Assembly: GCA_013286795.1 (NCBI GenBank)
Contig: JABDFA010000011.1
Location: forward strand, 6,341-38,340
Length of the DNA stretch: 32,000 bases
Direction of reading: 5' to 3'
Source: Candidatus Babelota bacterium
GTDB lineage: Bacteria > Babelota > Babeliae > Babelales > JABDEC01
Shown here: piece by piece, positions 9,174 to 26,594 of the stretch
Numbering within the stretch: the stretch's first letter is position 1
How the letters are laid out: every line of letters begins with the position of its first letter
Notes under the pieces: generated by a model
Told to the model about the DNA's origin: nothing
The model's database searches: none
The model's input: only the letters and a program-made list of their open reading frames with translations
Translations under genes and position numbers: made by a program

Positions 9174-9911
9174 TTATCTTATTGGTTTAATACAATTTCT
9201 AAAACATTTACATATAAAATGGGAACACTTTTTTTCTCTTTTTGGAGTGTTTTCTTGATTAAAACTTTTTTGTTTTTCACGTTTTAATTCACTGATGTTT
9301 TGATCCAATTGAAGTTTAAAATCTCTTAAATTTTTGGTAAATTCTCCCACATAACTATCCACTATGTCGCTGAATTGTTCATCTGTTAATCTAGAATTAT
9401 TCTCAGAATCAATAGATTCTAAAATATGTCTAATTCTGCCTGGCATCGAATTAGAAGCAAAAGTGAAAAGGTTATCCTTTTTAAATTGTTCTATATCAGC
9501 TACTGCTAGATCCTTCTCTAGGTTTCTTAAAAAGTTACTTGCTTCAAATTCTAGTCGAATCTTAACAGATCCTACTAGATTTCTTAAAATAGGTTGCTCT
9601 TCTTGTGTCTTAGAATCTTCTGAAGGCTCGAATGTTTCATCTCCTGAGACATATACAAAATCATCTTCCTCTAATTGCATTGAGAAGATATTGAAGCTTG
9701 TAACAAAACAAAAAAATAGAACATATCTCTTGCAAAACCTAAAAATTTGTTTTATTCCGTTCGCCCTGAGTATCGCACGTAGTGCGATGTATCGAAGGGT
9801 GAATAAAAAATTATGTTCATGGTTCGATACGTTTGCTTCGCAAACACTCACCACGAACGGGCTCTCAAATAGAGTTATATTAGGTTTTGAAAGAAGCCTA
9901 ATTTGTCTCAT
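9174..9911 (-). CDS. Hypothetical protein, probably secreted; 5' end remodelled by repeat R2 and true start uncertain
   Basis: The ORF is open from the ATG at 9911, but the first ~50 codons are repeat-derived (PFVVSVCEANVSNHE ... LRANG). A leader-like KRYVLFFCFVTSFNIFS|MQLEEDD follows with no ATG of its own. An in-frame ATA (IKQIFRF...) sits where a start would be expected. The C-terminus carries a Cys-basic cluster, KKCSHFICKCFRNCIKPIR. Confidence 0.5.
   Translation of the reverse strand: MRQIRLLSKPNITLFESPFVVSVCEANVSNHEHNFLFTLRYIALRAILRANGIKQIFRFCKRYVLFFCFVTSFNIFSMQLEEDDFVYVSGDETFEPSEDSKTQEEQPILRNLVGSVKIRLEFEASNFLRNLEKDLAVADIEQFKKDNLFTFASNSMPGRIRHILESIDSENNSRLTDEQFSDIVDSYVGEFTKNLRDFKLQLDQNISELKREKQKSFNQENTPKREKKCSHFICKCFRNCIKPIR
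9757..9861. repeat. GC-rich modular palindromic repeat, locus R2 (module B + module A, inverted relative to R5)
   Basis: Module B: ccgttcgccctgagtatcgcacgtagtgcgatgtatcgaagggtga (9757-9802). A 12-nt AT spacer follows. Module A: gttcatggttcgatacgtttgcttcgcaaacactcaccacgaacgg (9815-9860). Module A is near-identical to 17641-17688. Confidence 0.85.
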
Positions 9912-22046: not shown

Positions 22047-23360
22047 ATGACAAAACAAGTTTTTAAAAATTTTATTATATATTCCTCAGGGGCAATAGTT
22101 TCAAGAGGCATAACTGCTACAATTACCTTATCTGCAACCAATTTTTTAAGTACGTCAGAATTTGGCCTGCTTTCTCTATTAAATACTTTTATTGCTATAG
22201 TTCCAATATTTTTAAATTTAGGATTAAGACAAGTTTTTGGATTAGATTTTTTTCATACAGATAATACCGGAAGAAGAAAAATAATAGAAGATATAATCTC
22301 AATATATCTATTAATAGCTATACCAATTTTAATTTTATTAATCAGTTTTATCCCTAAATTCAATAAACTATTATTTTTAAATCAACTTGATCCAAAAATA
22401 ATTTTAATAGCACTAGTAATATGTTTTATGCATTTTTTTACAGAACTGCTCTTTCAAGTTTTTCGTTACCAAAGTAAATCCTTACATTTGTCTTTGACGC
22501 AAATATTAATGGGATCCACTAATGCACTTTGTGCAATAATATTAATAAAATTTTTTAATTTTAAAATCATGGGTTTAATCCTATCTAATTTGACTAGCAT
22601 GCTACTAATTTTTATTTATGGATTATGGTTATATTTTAAAAAAATTGGTTACTTAAAACCAAAATTAATAAACAAAAATATTATAAAATATTATCTATTA
22701 ACAGGTTTTCCATTTATACCAAGTATAATGTTTTCTTGGATATTATCATTTGCAGATCGTTGGATCCTAGCTCAATATACAAGCTTAGAGCAAGTAGGAA
22801 TATATTCTTTGGCAGACTCATTTGGACAACTTTTTCAAATGTTTATACTCTACCCTCTAAGTGGCTCTTATATCCCATATATTTTTGAAACATTTAGTAA
22901 AAATAAAGAAAATATTTTAGACATAGATAAGTTGAATCAAAAAAACATGTGGCTATCAATGTTTATAATGTTCATAATTGTAATCATTGGTTTTGCATTC
23001 TCAAAAAAAATATTATTTTGGATAATACCAGCAAAGTTCCATGAAGCAATAAATTATATTTTGATTATATTGATGAGCCAGATAATATTCATGGGTTCCT
23101 ATTTTGCAACCTGCTACTTACAATTTTTTAAAAGAGTATATCTTCTTGTAAGTTTTACAATTATTTCTGCAATTTTAAACAGTATCTTAAATATTTTATT
23201 GGTGCCAAAATTTGGCATATACGGCTGCCTTTTTTCTACTTTTATTGCATACGTCTTTTATTTGGCAATAATTTTAATTGTTACGAAAAGTGTAAAAGAC
23301 AAAGCGATTAAACTTCTTCCAAAACCTAATATGATTTTATTTAGAACCCGTTCGTGGTGA
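22047..23360 (+). CDS. Polysaccharide/oligosaccharide flippase-like polytopic membrane protein (Wzx/MOP-type, tentative)
   Basis: 437 aa and hydrophobic throughout (about 12 or more TM segments). It sits next to glycosyltransferases. The last 4 codons (TRSW) and the TGA stop come from repeat R5. The family call rests on topology and context only. Confidence 0.65.
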   Translation: MTKQVFKNFIIYSSGAIVSRGITATITLSATNFLSTSEFGLLSLLNTFIAIVPIFLNLGLRQVFGLDFFHTDNTGRRKIIEDIISIYLLIAIPILILLISFIPKFNKLLFLNQLDPKIILIALVICFMHFFTELLFQVFRYQSKSLHLSLTQILMGSTNALCAIILIKFFNFKIMGLILSNLTSMLLIFIYGLWLYFKKIGYLKPKLINKNIIKYYLLTGFPFIPSIMFSWILSFADRWILAQYTSLEQVGIYSLADSFGQLFQMFILYPLSGSYIPYIFETFSKNKENILDIDKLNQKNMWLSMFIMFIIVIIGFAFSKKILFWIIPAKFHEAINYILIILMSQIIFMGSYFATCYLQFFKRVYLLVSFTIISAILNSILNILLVPKFGIYGCLFSTFIAYVFYLAIILIVTKSVKDKAIKLLPKPNMILFRTRSW

Positions 23361-23475
23361 GTGTTCTACGAAGCTTGCGTAGTAGAACGTATCGAATCCA
23401 TGAACGCAAATTTATATTCACCCTTCGATACATCCGTCTTCGCCGGAGGCTTCGACGGATACTCAGGGCGAACGG
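23347..23475. repeat. GC-rich modular palindromic repeat, locus R5 (module A + module B)
   Basis: Module A: cccgttcgtggtgagtgttctacgaagcttgcgtagtagaacgtatcgaatccatgaacgc (23347-23407). An AT spacer follows. Module B: tcacccttcgatacatccgtcttcgccggaggcttcgacggatactcagggcgaacgg (23418-23475). This is the same two-module layout as R2 in the opposite orientation. Confidence 0.85.
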
Positions 23476-23509
23476 AGAGAGGGTCAACTTGTAAATTTAA
23501 TAAATTGTT

Positions 23510-24355
23510 TCACAAATTATCGTATCTTTGCCGAGACTTAATCAATTGTGTAATTTTCCTTTGTTTTTCAGAATTAACTTTGAAATCATTAAAGTTCGTT
23601 TGTACATTATAAACATATAAAATTTCATCAACAAACTTTATATGCCCACGAGCCATTTCAAGCATAGGAAGCATTTCTGCCACATCACCAGCTACATCAA
23701 TAAAATCACCATCTAACATTAAATCAGATTTTTTGATTTTTTTAAATAGCCATGCATAATATGTTCTTAATGCGCTGGTGTACCATTGATCCATTGACCT
23801 GAAATCATAATCTTGTTCAAGAAATTTACACTGTCCCTCAACACCAGATGGCCAACGAATAAATTGACCATAAGTTAACCAAACATCCTCAGTAGAATAA
23901 GTAGAATTTATTATCTGAAAAACATAATCTTGAGCTAACCAATCATCTCCATCTAAAATGATAACTATTTCTTCATCATTTGCTAAATGGGAACCTAAAT
24001 ATCTGTTTGCAGTAGCCCCACTTCGTTTTTCATTTCTTATCAAGGTTAGTTTAGATTTATAGCCTAAACTATCCACATAACCCTGAACATAAAAAGATGT
24101 ATCATCCTGTGAAGCATCATCAATATATATAATTCTATAATTTGAATATTTTTGATTAAAAATAGAATCTAAATTTTTTTTATACCAGAGAGCATTATTA
24201 TAAGATGGTATTACTACAACTATTGGTTTTTCATAAAGATTATTAATTATTTTATTCTTTCTAAAAAAGCTTCTCAACTTTGCTATATTTAGTTTTATTG
24301 CAAATTTCATTCCAAACCATTTTTCTAACTTTTTTATCATAACTTTTAAAATCAT
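23510..24355 (-). CDS. Glycosyltransferase family 2 (tandem paralog, downstream copy)
   Basis: GT-A signature VVVIPSYNNALWYKKNLDSIFNQKYSNYRIIYIDDASQDDT and DXD motif LDGDDWL. The N-terminal MILKVMIKKLEKWF is homologous to MVEKFVIKLIYKFF of the upstream copy, which supports the ATG at 24355. Confidence 0.85.
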   Translation of the reverse strand: MILKVMIKKLEKWFGMKFAIKLNIAKLRSFFRKNKIINNLYEKPIVVVIPSYNNALWYKKNLDSIFNQKYSNYRIIYIDDASQDDTSFYVQGYVDSLGYKSKLTLIRNEKRSGATANRYLGSHLANDEEIVIILDGDDWLAQDYVFQIINSTYSTEDVWLTYGQFIRWPSGVEGQCKFLEQDYDFRSMDQWYTSALRTYYAWLFKKIKKSDLMLDGDFIDVAGDVAEMLPMLEMARGHIKFVDEILYVYNVQTNFNDFKVNSEKQRKITQLIKSRQRYDNL

Positions 24356-25226
24356 TTATAGGAGAATCTATATTTCTTAATAACACAATTTCATCAATTG
24401 AAGTAACTTTATTTTGAGCCATCTCAAGTATAGGGTAAAAAATTGCTGCATCACCACATAAAGGAAAAAATTCCCCTAATGCTGTTGAACTTATACTTTC
24501 TTTATTTATCTTTTTAAAAAGAGCTGCATAATATGAGCGTAGTCCAGAAAAAACCCACGGGTATAATCTTATTTTATTTAATCTTAAAATAAACCTAGGT
24601 ACCGGCTGAAAAAATTTCTCAATTTCAAGTCTTTCAGCCAAATCTTCTGGGTAATTCTTATAATTTCCATAAACTACCCATGCGCCTGTTATTTGATAAT
24701 AATTATTAAATAAACTCAAAACCTGAGAACCATTTAAATAATCATCCCCATCAAGCTCTAAAATTATTCTATTATCATCTAGGCTATTAATCACAGAATA
24801 TAGATTTTCGACCTTTTTTTTACGAGTATCATTTAAGATATATTTTACTTTCTTTTGAGGATCATAATCTTCAAGAAATTTTTGCACAATCTCTGAAGTC
24901 CCATCCTTTGAACAATCATCTATATAGATTACATCAAAATTTGAATAATTTTGACCCAAGACAGATTCTAAATTTTTTTTACAGTATTTTATATTGTTAT
25001 AAGAAGTGATAACGACGGTTATGGGTAATTCTTTTAAATTATTATTTGGAAACCCGTTCGTGGTGCCTGCCCGTCGAAGCTCTAAGAGCGAAGTCGGGAG
25101 TGTTCTACGAAGCTTTCTTGTCCGGCGTAGCTTTAGCGAAGACGGAGCGAAGTAGAACGTATCGAACCATGAACTCTTGAACTTAAAAAACTTATAAATT
25201 AACTTGATTACAAATTTCTCTACCAT
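24261..25226 (-). CDS. Glycosyltransferase family 2 (tandem paralog, upstream copy, with repeat R6 translated in frame)
   Basis: TVVITSYNNIKYCKKNLESVLGQNYSNFDVIYIDDCSKDGT and LDGDDYL. There is no ATG between the repeat and the catalytic domain. The conserved N-terminal peptide lies upstream of the repeat in the same frame. Confidence 0.8.
   Translation of the reverse strand: MVEKFVIKLIYKFFKFKSSWFDTFYFAPSSLKLRRTRKLRRTLPTSLLELRRAGTTNGFPNNNLKELPITVVITSYNNIKYCKKNLESVLGQNYSNFDVIYIDDCSKDGTSEIVQKFLEDYDPQKKVKYILNDTRKKKVENLYSVINSLDDNRIILELDGDDYLNGSQVLSLFNNYYQITGAWVVYGNYKNYPEDLAERLEIEKFFQPVPRFILRLNKIRLYPWVFSGLRSYYAALFKKINKESISSTALGEFFPLCGDAAIFYPILEMAQNKVTSIDEIVLLRNIDSPINDFKSYDKKVRKMVWNEICNKTKYSKVEKLF
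25053..25174. repeat. GC-rich palindromic repeat, locus R6 (module A carrying two nested GC-rich insertions)
   Basis: It shares cccgttcgtggtg ... gtgttctacgaagc ... aagtagaacgtatcgaaccatgaac with R5 module A. Two extra hairpin-like inserts are present at about 25066-25099 and about 25114-25149. The second contains gcgaagacgga, the inverse of tccgtcttcgc in R5 module B. Confidence 0.85.
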
Positions 25227-25292
25227 AATAATTTCTCCAATATTCTAAAAAAATTATTACTCGAAAAAAATTAATAATCAATCAACAATTAT

Positions 25293-25328
25293 AAAAAAAG
25301 CGCCCAATGTTTTTAGGCATCAAGCGCT
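25293..25328 (-). terminator. Rho-independent terminator of the 25341..26594 gene
   Basis: Minus strand: AGCGCUUGAUG (25328-25318), 8-nt loop, CAUUGGGCGCU (25309-25299) with two G-U pairs, then a U6 run. It is similar in sequence to the terminator at 672-705. Confidence 0.7.
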
Positions 25329-25340
25329 AAATTTAATTAC

Positions 25341-26594
25341 TTATTCTTCTGGAGCATACCAATCTTCAGGATCAACTATTCTTATTGGCCGTTCCCCGCC
25401 TTCTATTACAATACCACTTGAAGGTTCTGAAGCTTGTTGTCCTTCTGCTTCTTGTTTTTTTTCTTCTTGTCTTATTCTAGGTTGCGCTTCAGGAGAATGT
25501 TGTATTACAGGCAATTCTAAAGTTAAAGACCAGGGAGTGGAGCCTACTTCAGGTTTAGTGTCTTTTTGGACAGCTGCCCCTGTTAATCTTGCTTGTTCAA
25601 TTCGTTCATTTCTTTCTTTCTCTTCTTGAGCTGAAATTAAACGTTGTGCTTCTCGAATTTTTTCTTGCTTTTTTTGGTGAGCTAATTCTATAGCTTCAAT
25701 TTCAGAACCGAAGTTTTCAGCTTCTTCTCTATTTATTTTTGCTTCTTCAGATCTTACTACAGGTTGAGATTTTGCTGGTTCTGGTTTTATAGATTGTGGT
25801 TTTTGAGAAACTGTTGAAGCTTGTGCTTTTTGAGATTTTGCGCAAGCTGCTTCTATAGCCATTATCTGAGCAAGAAAATCTTCTTCATCTTGTTGTTGTT
25901 TAGGTGCAACATACTTTGGCTCTTCTAGCTTTATTCCAGATTTTTCCTTTTCAAATCGCTCAGAATTCAAGATTTGTTTTATTTGTGGATCTTTTGCATA
26001 GGAATAAGCATCTCGTCGATCTTTATTTACAAATTTAGGATCAGCACCATTAGCCAATAATAATTTAACTGTTTCAATCTTGCCATCTATAGATGCTCTC
26101 ATCAAAGGGGTAAGGTTGTTACTATAAGAGCCATTGACATTTGCTCCTTTTTCTAAAAGCAATTTAGCCAACTCAAAACTTGTATTGGCCGCCAGATAAA
26201 GGGGAGTATCACCATAAGCATTCGAAGCGTTTACATCAGCCCCACTTTCTATGAGTAACTTAGCTATTGGGAAATTTCCACGAAACGCTGCTGTCATCAA
26301 AGGTGTCCATTTAGCACCAGCACTAGTATCAGGAGCATTTACATTTGCTCCATTTTTAATAGCATTTTGAACTTCAATTATGTTACCATGATTTATTGCT
26401 TTTATAAGTTTCTTATTTTCTTCTTTCTCTTTATTTTCTTTTTCTTCTGATTTTTTAGTCTCTTTAGCTTTTTGACAAGCGACTTCAATTTTAGCAATCT
26501 CAGCGCTTAAATCTTCTTGCATTCCCATACCAGAAATTACTGATATATTAGCAAAAGCAACAAAAAATAAGCTAATTAATTTAAGGTTTTTCAT
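25341..26594 (-). CDS. Secreted ankyrin-repeat protein with repeated helical motif and K/E/Q-rich C-terminal region
   Basis: Leader MKNLKLISLFFVAFANISVISG. There are four good ankyrin repeats (TPLMTAAFRGNFPIAKLLIESGADVNA; TPLYLAA...LLLEKGANVNG; TPLMRASIDGKIETVKLLLANGADP). A GGAAGG RBS lies upstream. Confidence 0.88.
   Translation of the reverse strand: MKNLKLISLFFVAFANISVISGMGMQEDLSAEIAKIEVACQKAKETKKSEEKENKEKEENKKLIKAINHGNIIEVQNAIKNGANVNAPDTSAGAKWTPLMTAAFRGNFPIAKLLIESGADVNASNAYGDTPLYLAANTSFELAKLLLEKGANVNGSYSNNLTPLMRASIDGKIETVKLLLANGADPKFVNKDRRDAYSYAKDPQIKQILNSERFEKEKSGIKLEEPKYVAPKQQQDEEDFLAQIMAIEAACAKSQKAQASTVSQKPQSIKPEPAKSQPVVRSEEAKINREEAENFGSEIEAIELAHQKKQEKIREAQRLISAQEEKERNERIEQARLTGAAVQKDTKPEVGSTPWSLTLELPVIQHSPEAQPRIRQEEKKQEAEGQQASEPSSGIVIEGGERPIRIVDPEDWYAPEE

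Follow-up and report, generated by a model that had tools for sequence, protein, structure and literature searches.

A palindromic repeat read in frame in the linker of a Babeliales glycosyltransferase: a probable counterpart of the Rickettsia palindromic elements

The DNA analysed here (the window, 32,000 nucleotides (nt) in length) comes from contig JABDFA010000011.1 of a Candidatus Babelota bacterium (assembly GCA_013286795.1), an amoeba-parasite-type member of the Babeliales whose genome (G000) comprises 1.25 Mb at 30% GC in a 21-contig assembly that is 94% complete. On the minus strand of the window lie two adjacent genes for GT2 glycosyltransferases, GT2a (24261..25226, 321 amino acids (aa), GT-A fold) and its tandem paralog GT2b (23510..24355, 37% identity), the latter carrying no repeat. 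GT2a contains R6, a 121-nt nested palindromic composite at 25054..25174 that is read on the minus strand as residues 18-58 of the protein (SSWFDTFYFAPSSLKLRRTRKLRRTLPTSLLELRRAGTTNG) without a stop codon, in line with the original prediction of some 40 repeat-encoded residues in frame in the upstream GT2. We favour the interpretation, with a probability of about 0.72, that R6 is a tolerated and co-translated passenger in the linker of GT2a, comparable to the Rickettsia palindromic elements (RPEs). Four observations carry this interpretation: the extra DNA is evident against the orthologs, a single start lies upstream of the repeat, the gene is under purifying selection, and the predicted fold is compatible with the insert.

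The identity of the host gene is supported by its open reading frame (ORF), by a PF00535 (Glycos_transf_2) match at aa 70-218 (E 8e-19, 68.5 bits against a gathering cut-off of 23.3), by the AlphaFold2 (AF2) model and by Foldseek, which gave a probability of 1.0 for the GT2a domain against the GT-A enzymes TarS, TarP, K4CP and SpsA. When the DxD and DDxSxD motifs were tested in a 72-sequence alignment, D103-D104 and D159-G-D-D162 were located in invariant or near-invariant columns, and all the residues that are invariant across the 72 members of the family are intact in GT2a.

R6 differs markedly in composition from its surroundings, with 57% GC against ~25% in the flanks. Its pieces are found elsewhere in the genome at 97-100% identity over 19-38 nt, and the outer arm CCGTTCGTGGTG has ~35 copies; because these pieces recur genome-wide, R6 is a real repeat at the coordinates given above. 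The exact composite is single-copy, and its modules are dispersed. Comparison with canonical copies resolves the 121 nt into a 59-nt host repetitive extragenic palindromic (REP) unit, a 33-nt mini-hairpin (H1) and a 29-nt mini-hairpin (H2), the host REP having the layout CCGTTCGTGGTG, then AGTG-GTTCTAC..GTAGAAC-CGTATCGAACCATGAAC. Read on the plus strand, the composite starts with the outer arm CCGTTCGTGGTG (25054..25065), which pairs with the ACCATGAAC arm at 25166-25174. H1 (CCTGCCCGTCGAAGCTCTAAGAGCGAAGTCGGG, 25066..25098) directly follows this arm and has copies at 94-97% identity at C4:103005 and C9:10469 (contig and position in this genome). It is followed by the 5' half of the inner hairpin of the host REP (AGTGTTCTACGAAGCTTT, 25099..25116), a 100% match to the REPs that bracket a GIY-YIG gene at G000:C6:10003-10218. 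H2 (CTTGTCCGGCGTAGCTTTAGCGAAGACGG, 25117..25145) occupies the loop of this inner hairpin, with related sequences at C9:52306-52338 (97%), C19:236-263 and C5:35379-35406, and the composite closes with the 3' half of the inner hairpin and the outer arm (AGCGAAGTAGAACGTATCGAACCATGAAC, 25146..25174), identical (100%) over 31 nt to C6:10283-10313.

This nesting is not peculiar to R6. In a search with the 5' arm of H1, about 14 of the 21 H-type copies found are nested in another REP, where ..CTG or ..GTG precedes and AG follows them. The canonical REP units measure 42-57 nt as counted, with two bases more to the GAAC end, and they also occur as head-to-head pairs (e.g., C2:84981/85097, C5:83029/83144 and C9:54111/54228). 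Doublets of A-type REPs, head-to-head, ~115 nt apart and with two different inner hairpins, were also observed at C19:153/277 and are REPIN-like. Mini-hairpins of the H type, 30 nt long (CCTGCCCGTCGAAGC..GCGAAGTCGGG), are additionally found at G000:C7:14817, C1:174664 and C1:111529 in WD40-like coding sequence, at the IWDL/SGK turn, and the insert at C7:14817 is in frame within its enclosing ORF. The H units being 30 or 33 nt long, the reading frame is preserved wherever one of them lands. Regarding the features of miniature inverted-repeat transposable elements, the terminal arms of R6 (GTTCGTGGT / ACCATGAAC) are present, a target-site duplication is unrecognisable at the junctions, and the target linker is partly deleted. 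Exceptional thermodynamic stability was considered for R6 and rejected, since its fold energy is no better than that of shuffled sequences (z = -0.2 as DNA, z = +0.5 as RNA), even though the nesting of its palindromes is obvious from the sequence. A known RNA was likewise rejected as the identity of R6, as an Rfam scan of 24800-25400 returned no family match, only one sub-threshold chance match outside R6.

The ATG of GT2a at 25226 is preceded, 7 nt upstream, by the Shine-Dalgarno sequence GGAGA (25234..25238, minus strand), read from the upstream 60 nt, and both this upstream region and the start are identical in a sister strain (contig L016). Codons 1-17 (MVEKFVIKLIYKFFKFK, 25176..25226, minus strand) encode an amphipathic N-terminal helix, conserved according to the orthologs, to the comparison of non-synonymous and synonymous differences per site (pN and pS) and to the AF2 model. 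The same peptide is present in the orthologs P0002 (contig L013) and P0073 (contig L016), and a related version in P0005. Across the 17 aligned N-terminal codon pairs (GT2a codons 2-18 against L013), pN is 0.10 and pS 0.75, that is, synonymous saturation; since pN is low while the synonymous sites are saturated, this peptide is translated and constrained. The original prediction had described the peptide as shared by the two paralogs, which is only partly correct: as aligned there, BLASTP detects no significant similarity and no high-scoring segment pair, and a match does exist (KF[VA]IKL), but from Met16 of GT2b and not from Met1.

Between the repeat and the first beta strand of GT2a there is no in-frame ATG, as had been noted from the sequence, and no GTG or TTG either; after the ATG at 25226, the next canonical start in this frame is the TTG of codon 90, which lies beyond both the SYNN motif and beta strand 1. 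With the sole canonical start before codon 90 located upstream of the repeat, the enzyme, if made, is read through the repeat. In a different scenario, translation would start downstream of R6 at a non-canonical codon (ATA at codon 69 or ATC at codon 73); the protein would then have neither helix nor insert, and the frame further upstream would be open by coincidence. Codons of this rare-start type are present at these two positions, and the chance of a given R6 frame being open, ~0.19, is not negligible, although being both in frame and open has a joint chance of only ~0.06. Nevertheless, codons 69 and 73 lie in beta strand 1 of the Rossmann-like fold (E69-75), so that a start there would truncate the nucleotide-binding core; neither is preceded by a Shine-Dalgarno sequence, and the N-terminal helix that such a start would discard is conserved across orthologs and under purifying selection. 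Such a downstream start thus appears very improbable.

The comparison with orthologs shows the site without the repeat. The closest insert-free ortholog, P0002 (289 aa, 76% identical to GT2a over the aligned positions), displays the same N-terminal peptide (MEKFLIKLIYNFFKFK), followed by a linker (NQFGDLSSKIKF) and by the entry of the catalytic core (NKNLNELPFTVVITSYNN). Its linker is 12 residues long versus 43 in GT2a, which corresponds at the DNA level to 36 AT-rich nt in L013 versus 129 nt in GT2a, a net gain of 93 nt. The more distant orthologs P0005 and G031 also have short, AT-rich and repeat-free linkers. The RPE-like arrangement proposed originally, in which a repeat enters in frame after a conserved N-terminal peptide and ahead of the core, is therefore upheld with a better control than the tandem paralog, namely the insert-free ortholog P0002 of L013. 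Since the net gain is 93 nt and the element measures 121 nt, some target DNA was lost. The event at the neck of GT2a is a replacement of a 36-nt linker by 129 nt. The extra repeat-encoded residues are confirmed, and the idea of a plain insertion has to be abandoned. Over the whole gene, GT2a and its L013 ortholog differ by a non-synonymous divergence (dN) of 0.154 and a synonymous divergence (dS) of 1.04, with a ratio (omega) of 0.15 (0.148).

A closer comparison is provided by P0073 (328 aa), the second member of the 90%-identity cluster of GT2a, encoded on L016, a contig from another sample that is syntenic with the window (Ank-Ank-GT2a-GT2b-flippase). The catalytic parts of the two proteins are ~93% identical, with almost no differences in the N-terminal codons or upstream of the gene. 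Where GT2a has R6, L016 carries a different REP mosaic, also in frame, whose host REP is of the type CCGTTCGTCCTG..AGCTTGTCGAAGGATACGAAC and which contains H1 with H2 nested in the H1 loop. This mosaic accounts for 150 nt between KFK and NNNL (versus 129 nt in GT2a), with linker residues retained on both sides. A 34-nt module shared by the two mosaics is read in different frames, as ELRRAGTTNG in GT2a and as SFDGQAGRTG in L016, and is open in both. At the sequence level, there is consequently no peptide conservation between the inserts of the two strains, and both stay open and in frame. A metagenome-wide pattern scan for further alleles retrieved only this already known sister contig.

The existence of L016 also bears on the reliability of the assembly. 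A repeat could have been misplaced into GT2a in a metagenome assembly made of 21 contigs and rich in short repeats. However, typical read pairs are longer than the 121-nt element, its contig of 43.5 kb extends at least 6.6 kb beyond it on either side, the frame is exactly preserved, and the independently assembled L016, from another sample, also has a repeat at this position. We regard an artefact of this kind as extremely unlikely.

Between GT2a and P0073, residues 60-321 show a dS of 0.267, a dN of 0.039 and an omega of 0.145. Neutrality of the catalytic part is rejected (P = 4e-11), as is a model with one neutral lineage (P = 7e-6). When the changes are polarised with L013, 7 non-synonymous changes fall on the GT2a branch, 6 on the sister branch and 6 are ambiguous, the corresponding synonymous counts being 7, 9 and 12. 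The GT2a branch shows neither relaxation nor an excess of non-synonymous change.

These values bear on the main competing explanation, in which a recent insertion silenced or crippled GT2a, through hairpins in the 5' part of the mRNA or through the basic peptide, the ORF being intact only for lack of time to decay and GT2b possibly covering for the loss. Such a scenario would fit the existence of a tandem paralog, the fast turnover of REP content between strains, and the weaker constraint on GT2a compared with GT2b (omega 0.145 versus 0.036). Against it, the omega of the close pair (0.145) equals the long-term value obtained with L013 (0.148) with no non-synonymous excess on the GT2a branch, the catalytic residues are intact, the three-part nesting and the related mosaic of the sister strain suggest that the site has been occupied for some time, and shuffled sequences are predicted to form mRNA structures of similar stability (z = +0.5). 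The possibility that GT2a is an unexpressed pseudogene, raised with the original prediction, is thus disfavoured by the omega of 0.145, the balanced branches and the intact invariant residues; we retain it as a rival and consider it unlikely. Under the passenger interpretation, we infer that the GT2a protein would be made and active and that the insert would be neutral.

The predicted structure places the insert in a position where it could be tolerated. The AF2 run on the 72-sequence alignment reached a mean predicted local distance difference test (pLDDT) score of 89.3 and a predicted template modelling score (pTM) of 0.83. Residues 67-321 have pLDDT values above 90 and residues 2-23 form a helix with values of 72-78, moderately amphipathic (hydrophobic moment 0.46), whereas residues 21-60 only reach 50-59, with one short helix at 45-54. 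A low-confidence insert is therefore found between the helix and the GT-A domain, in a linker position, and the model suggests that the R6-encoded segment is probably disordered. It contains many basic residues (7 Arg, 2 Lys) and few acidic ones (1 Asp, 1 Glu), with a net charge of ~+7. The insert would lengthen the tether that joins the catalytic domain to a membrane-proximal helix, at a place where length and sequence seem to matter little.

The basic character of this segment raises the question of whether it has been co-opted, either as a longer tether that alters the contact with the membrane or the acceptor, or, at the level of mRNA or DNA, as a hairpin with a tuning effect on GT2a and GT2b expression. 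The same site is occupied by a repeat in both strains, the net charge of ~+7 could be relevant for such contacts, and REPs elsewhere have been reported to act on mRNA stability (PMC3733652). Nevertheless, the peptide differs in composition between the strains, which read the shared module in different frames, P0002 and the distant orthologs do without any insert, and the fold energy is unremarkable; co-option consequently seems improbable.

The openness of the frame, to which the original prediction attached significance, turns out to be at the level of chance. This correction and that of the paralog alignment leave the overall conclusion as it is. Two of the six frames of R6 are open, shuffled sequences averaging 1.12 (P(>=2) = 0.32), and coding design of the repeat was accordingly rejected as an explanation of its open frames. 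With openness at chance level, the in-frame survival of R6 reflects selection on the gene, a form of survivorship, and not a property of the repeat.

The genome-wide distribution of REP-like islands (n = 119) was also determined: 82 are intergenic, 12 overlap the end of an ORF and 25 lie inside long ORFs. With 89% of the genome covered by ORFs of 100 aa or more, REP islands are strongly depleted inside them (P = 1e-66). Among the 25 intragenic islands, 9 begin within the first 30 codons (P = 2e-4), and some of these N-terminal islands may correspond to mis-called starts. Residues resembling signal peptides after N-terminal repeats (SKKVILG, SNRVILGF) were examined as a candidate feature and set aside, as they are encoded by the AT-rich extension of a larger composite repeat. 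The window also contains ORF 9174..9911 (minus strand, 245 aa), whose residues ~6-52 derive from the R2 composite plus its AT-rich extension (LLSKPNITLFES-PFVVSVCEANVSNHE..., window 9757-9911) and are followed by a hydrophobic leader-like segment. This ORF reads module A in the opposite orientation, as had been claimed, namely as PFVVSVCEANVSNHE. The called ATG, only two codons upstream of the repeat, may not be its true start.

Returning to R6 as a tolerated passenger, the sequence of events could have been as follows. A non-autonomous, GC-rich REP-like element, a 59-nt hairpin nesting two mini-hairpins of 29-33 nt, would have landed in the DNA encoding the flexible neck that leads from the N-terminal amphipathic helix to the GT-A domain. 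Translation would still begin at the ancestral ATG at 25226 and proceed through the repeat, so that ~41 repeat-encoded, Arg-rich and probably disordered residues would stand in place of an ancestral linker of 12-17 residues. Alleles that broke the frame or contained a stop would have been purged by selection on the enzyme. The copy seen today would thus be in frame because selection removed the broken alleles, despite the repeat having no coding design.

Several points weigh against this interpretation and must be considered cautiously. The 121 nt of R6 are not a multiple of three, and the in-frame state needed an accompanying deletion of ~28-43 nt. The two mosaics may be independent insertions, with R6 younger than the strain split; if so, the dN/dS values partly predate R6 and say less about the period after the insertion. 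An in-frame ATG is present just downstream of the L016 element (MVNYFSG...), and because of this ATG directly after the element, the in-frame state in L016 is perhaps not under selection and is weaker evidence than that in GT2a. Finally, the low AF2 confidence is weak evidence for disorder of the modelled insert.

A further case was found in an ortholog of GT2a itself. The gene of a sister genus (G001, locus L004) contains a different multi-copy repeat, in frame, as a 133-nt GC-rich insert (PAFAPSTCKTSTDRQGGIYPEFIEGAGSPVIRSQDKPSSLKAM) with 4 further copies in G001 at 81-92% identity. It is located between a helix and a strand that correspond to GT2a residues 110-121 and 127-131, in the loop equivalent to residues 122-126. 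This insertion counts as independent support. The insert (L004 2078-2210; G001:C8:44202-44334) encodes 44 aa, including a YPEFIEG motif, inside the catalytic domain and in a loop facing away from the DxD site.

Some observations concern the neighbourhood of GT2a. GT2b starts at Met1 (24355) or Met16 (24310) and overlaps GT2a by 95 or 50 nt, respectively; the choice between these starts is ambiguous by conservation because the upstream ATG sits in the conserved PINDFK codons of GT2a. The tandem pair and its overlap are kept in L013, L014 and L016, the overlap being out of frame and of 38-95 nt in 4/4 genomes seen (window 24261-24355; L013 2158-2207; L016 4569-4618; L014 4821-4858). In a genome of another family (L003 1498-3645; G011:C5), a Wzx-like flippase and a GT2a ortholog form one open frame of 715 aa, which could be a fusion or hide an internal start. 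Between the flippase and GT2b of the window lies R5, a composite of ~210 nt that includes an AT-rich extension (window ~23297-23509). The 45-nt AT-rich extension is shared by ~12 copies, and R5 supplies the C-terminal tail of the flippase (...DKAIKLLPKPNMILFRTRSW, then the stop codon). R5 is absent in L016, where 11 nt are found at that spot with the gene ends overlapping; as it is missing from the sister strain, REP turnover must be recent.

Regarding the means by which these repeats spread, the REP-associated tyrosine transposase (RAYT; Y1 HUH transposase, PF01797) gave no match in this genome (94% complete), while control genomes do match. A classical REPtron was thus rejected, PF01797 being absent from the genome. 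The genome does contain six small GIY-YIG genes (C6:10003-10218, C3:46625-46840, C5:32860-33075, C2:75526-75741, C16:7614 and C6:69970). Four of them belong to one subfamily, and each of the four has inverted copies of a REP type of its own on either side. For the 95-aa GIY-YIG ORF at C6:10003-10218, these flanking copies match the backbone of R6 exactly; the best relatives of the encoded protein in the PDB are UPF0213 proteins (1zg2, 1ywl; E 1e-15), and it has no NCBIfam match. At C3, the nuclease ORF continues in frame through the downstream REP into the following gene, so that the two form a single ORF of 462 aa. The nuclease bracketed by the R6-type repeat may be involved in spreading R6, as suggested by analogy with the Ssn nucleases and their NTS/SRM hairpin repeats (Chenal et al. 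2025, PMC11893778). In both cases, a small single-domain GIY-YIG gene lies between inverted copies of a hairpin repeat dispersed in the genome. This likeness is one of gene layout. The protein encoded here is at most a putative member of the Ssn clade (cd10448), its nearest solved relatives being UPF0213 proteins, and Ssn itself has been described as a single-stranded DNA nuclease with a modulating effect on transformation rather than as an enzyme of mobilisation (PMC11893778).

A broader and more tentative proposal, which we think doubtful as it stands, is that the GT2 neck is a recurrent site of REP landing or exchange, where hairpins are swapped and nested between strains while the frame is kept. 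The 30/33-nt H units would then be loop-targeting mobile units that insert after ..CTG or ..GTG and are harmless in genes such as those for WD40 repeats, their length being a multiple of three. Together with repeat-specific GIY-YIG nucleases (UPF0213/Ssn-like), they could constitute a RAYT-independent mode of REP propagation that generates linker diversity in the Dependentiae.

Comparison with known systems places R6 closest to the RPEs. PMC10969869 presents in-frame palindromic insertions as the hallmark of these elements, described by Ogata et al. 2000 as summarised there and in PMC3733652; the latter also reports that proteins with N-terminal RPE decorations are expressed. Like an RPE, R6 is a palindrome in the 100-150 nt range in an AT-rich bacterium of the obligate intracellular type; judged against insert-free orthologs, it keeps the frame of a metabolic gene unrelated to it and sits at a fold-compatible position. 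Unlike the RPEs, it occurs in a Babeliales/Dependentiae-like host phylum, the likeness shown being one of layout; it is a unique mosaic of much shorter modules instead of a copy of one consensus; and its shared module is read in another frame in L016, in contrast to the conserved peptide and fixed frame of each RPE family.

Di Nocera et al. 2013 (PMC3733652) also describe intragenic REPs, which belong to the super-families GTAG and CGTC. Some clusters code for 43-82 aa, and in two Xanthomonas species recB harbours different REPs at approximately the same site; the CGTC REPs lack a dedicated transposase, and the authors caution that N-terminal cases may be mis-annotations. The repeats of R6 resemble them in being short hairpins of high GC content that are found alone, as inverted dimers or clustered, in some instances within genes. 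In contrast to those cases, mis-annotation is excluded for R6 by the ortholog evidence, its hairpins have GAAG-type internal mismatches and are nested in each other's loops, and the RAYT gene is absent from the genome. Likewise, R6 shares with REP/REPIN systems the short imperfect palindromes, often as inverted doublets, without a RAYT having been found. A literature search on palindromic repeats in Dependentiae or Babela retrieved nothing relevant.

R6 is therefore a phenomenon known from Rickettsia in a new phylum: it works like an RPE, without a conserved peptide in a fixed frame and without a RAYT. For genome annotation, GC-rich islands in AT-rich symbiont genomes are no basis for the automatic trimming of starts, and an N-terminal REP decoration need not be an annotation error. 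Where a REP family has no RAYT, the bracketed GIY-YIG nuclease offers a concrete candidate enzyme. The case is unusually well controlled, by an empty-site ortholog, by a sister mosaic at the same site and by an independent in-frame insertion in a sister genus. It extends in-frame selfish DNA within genes to the Babeliales/Dependentiae, where linkers can absorb such DNA without a conserved peptide.

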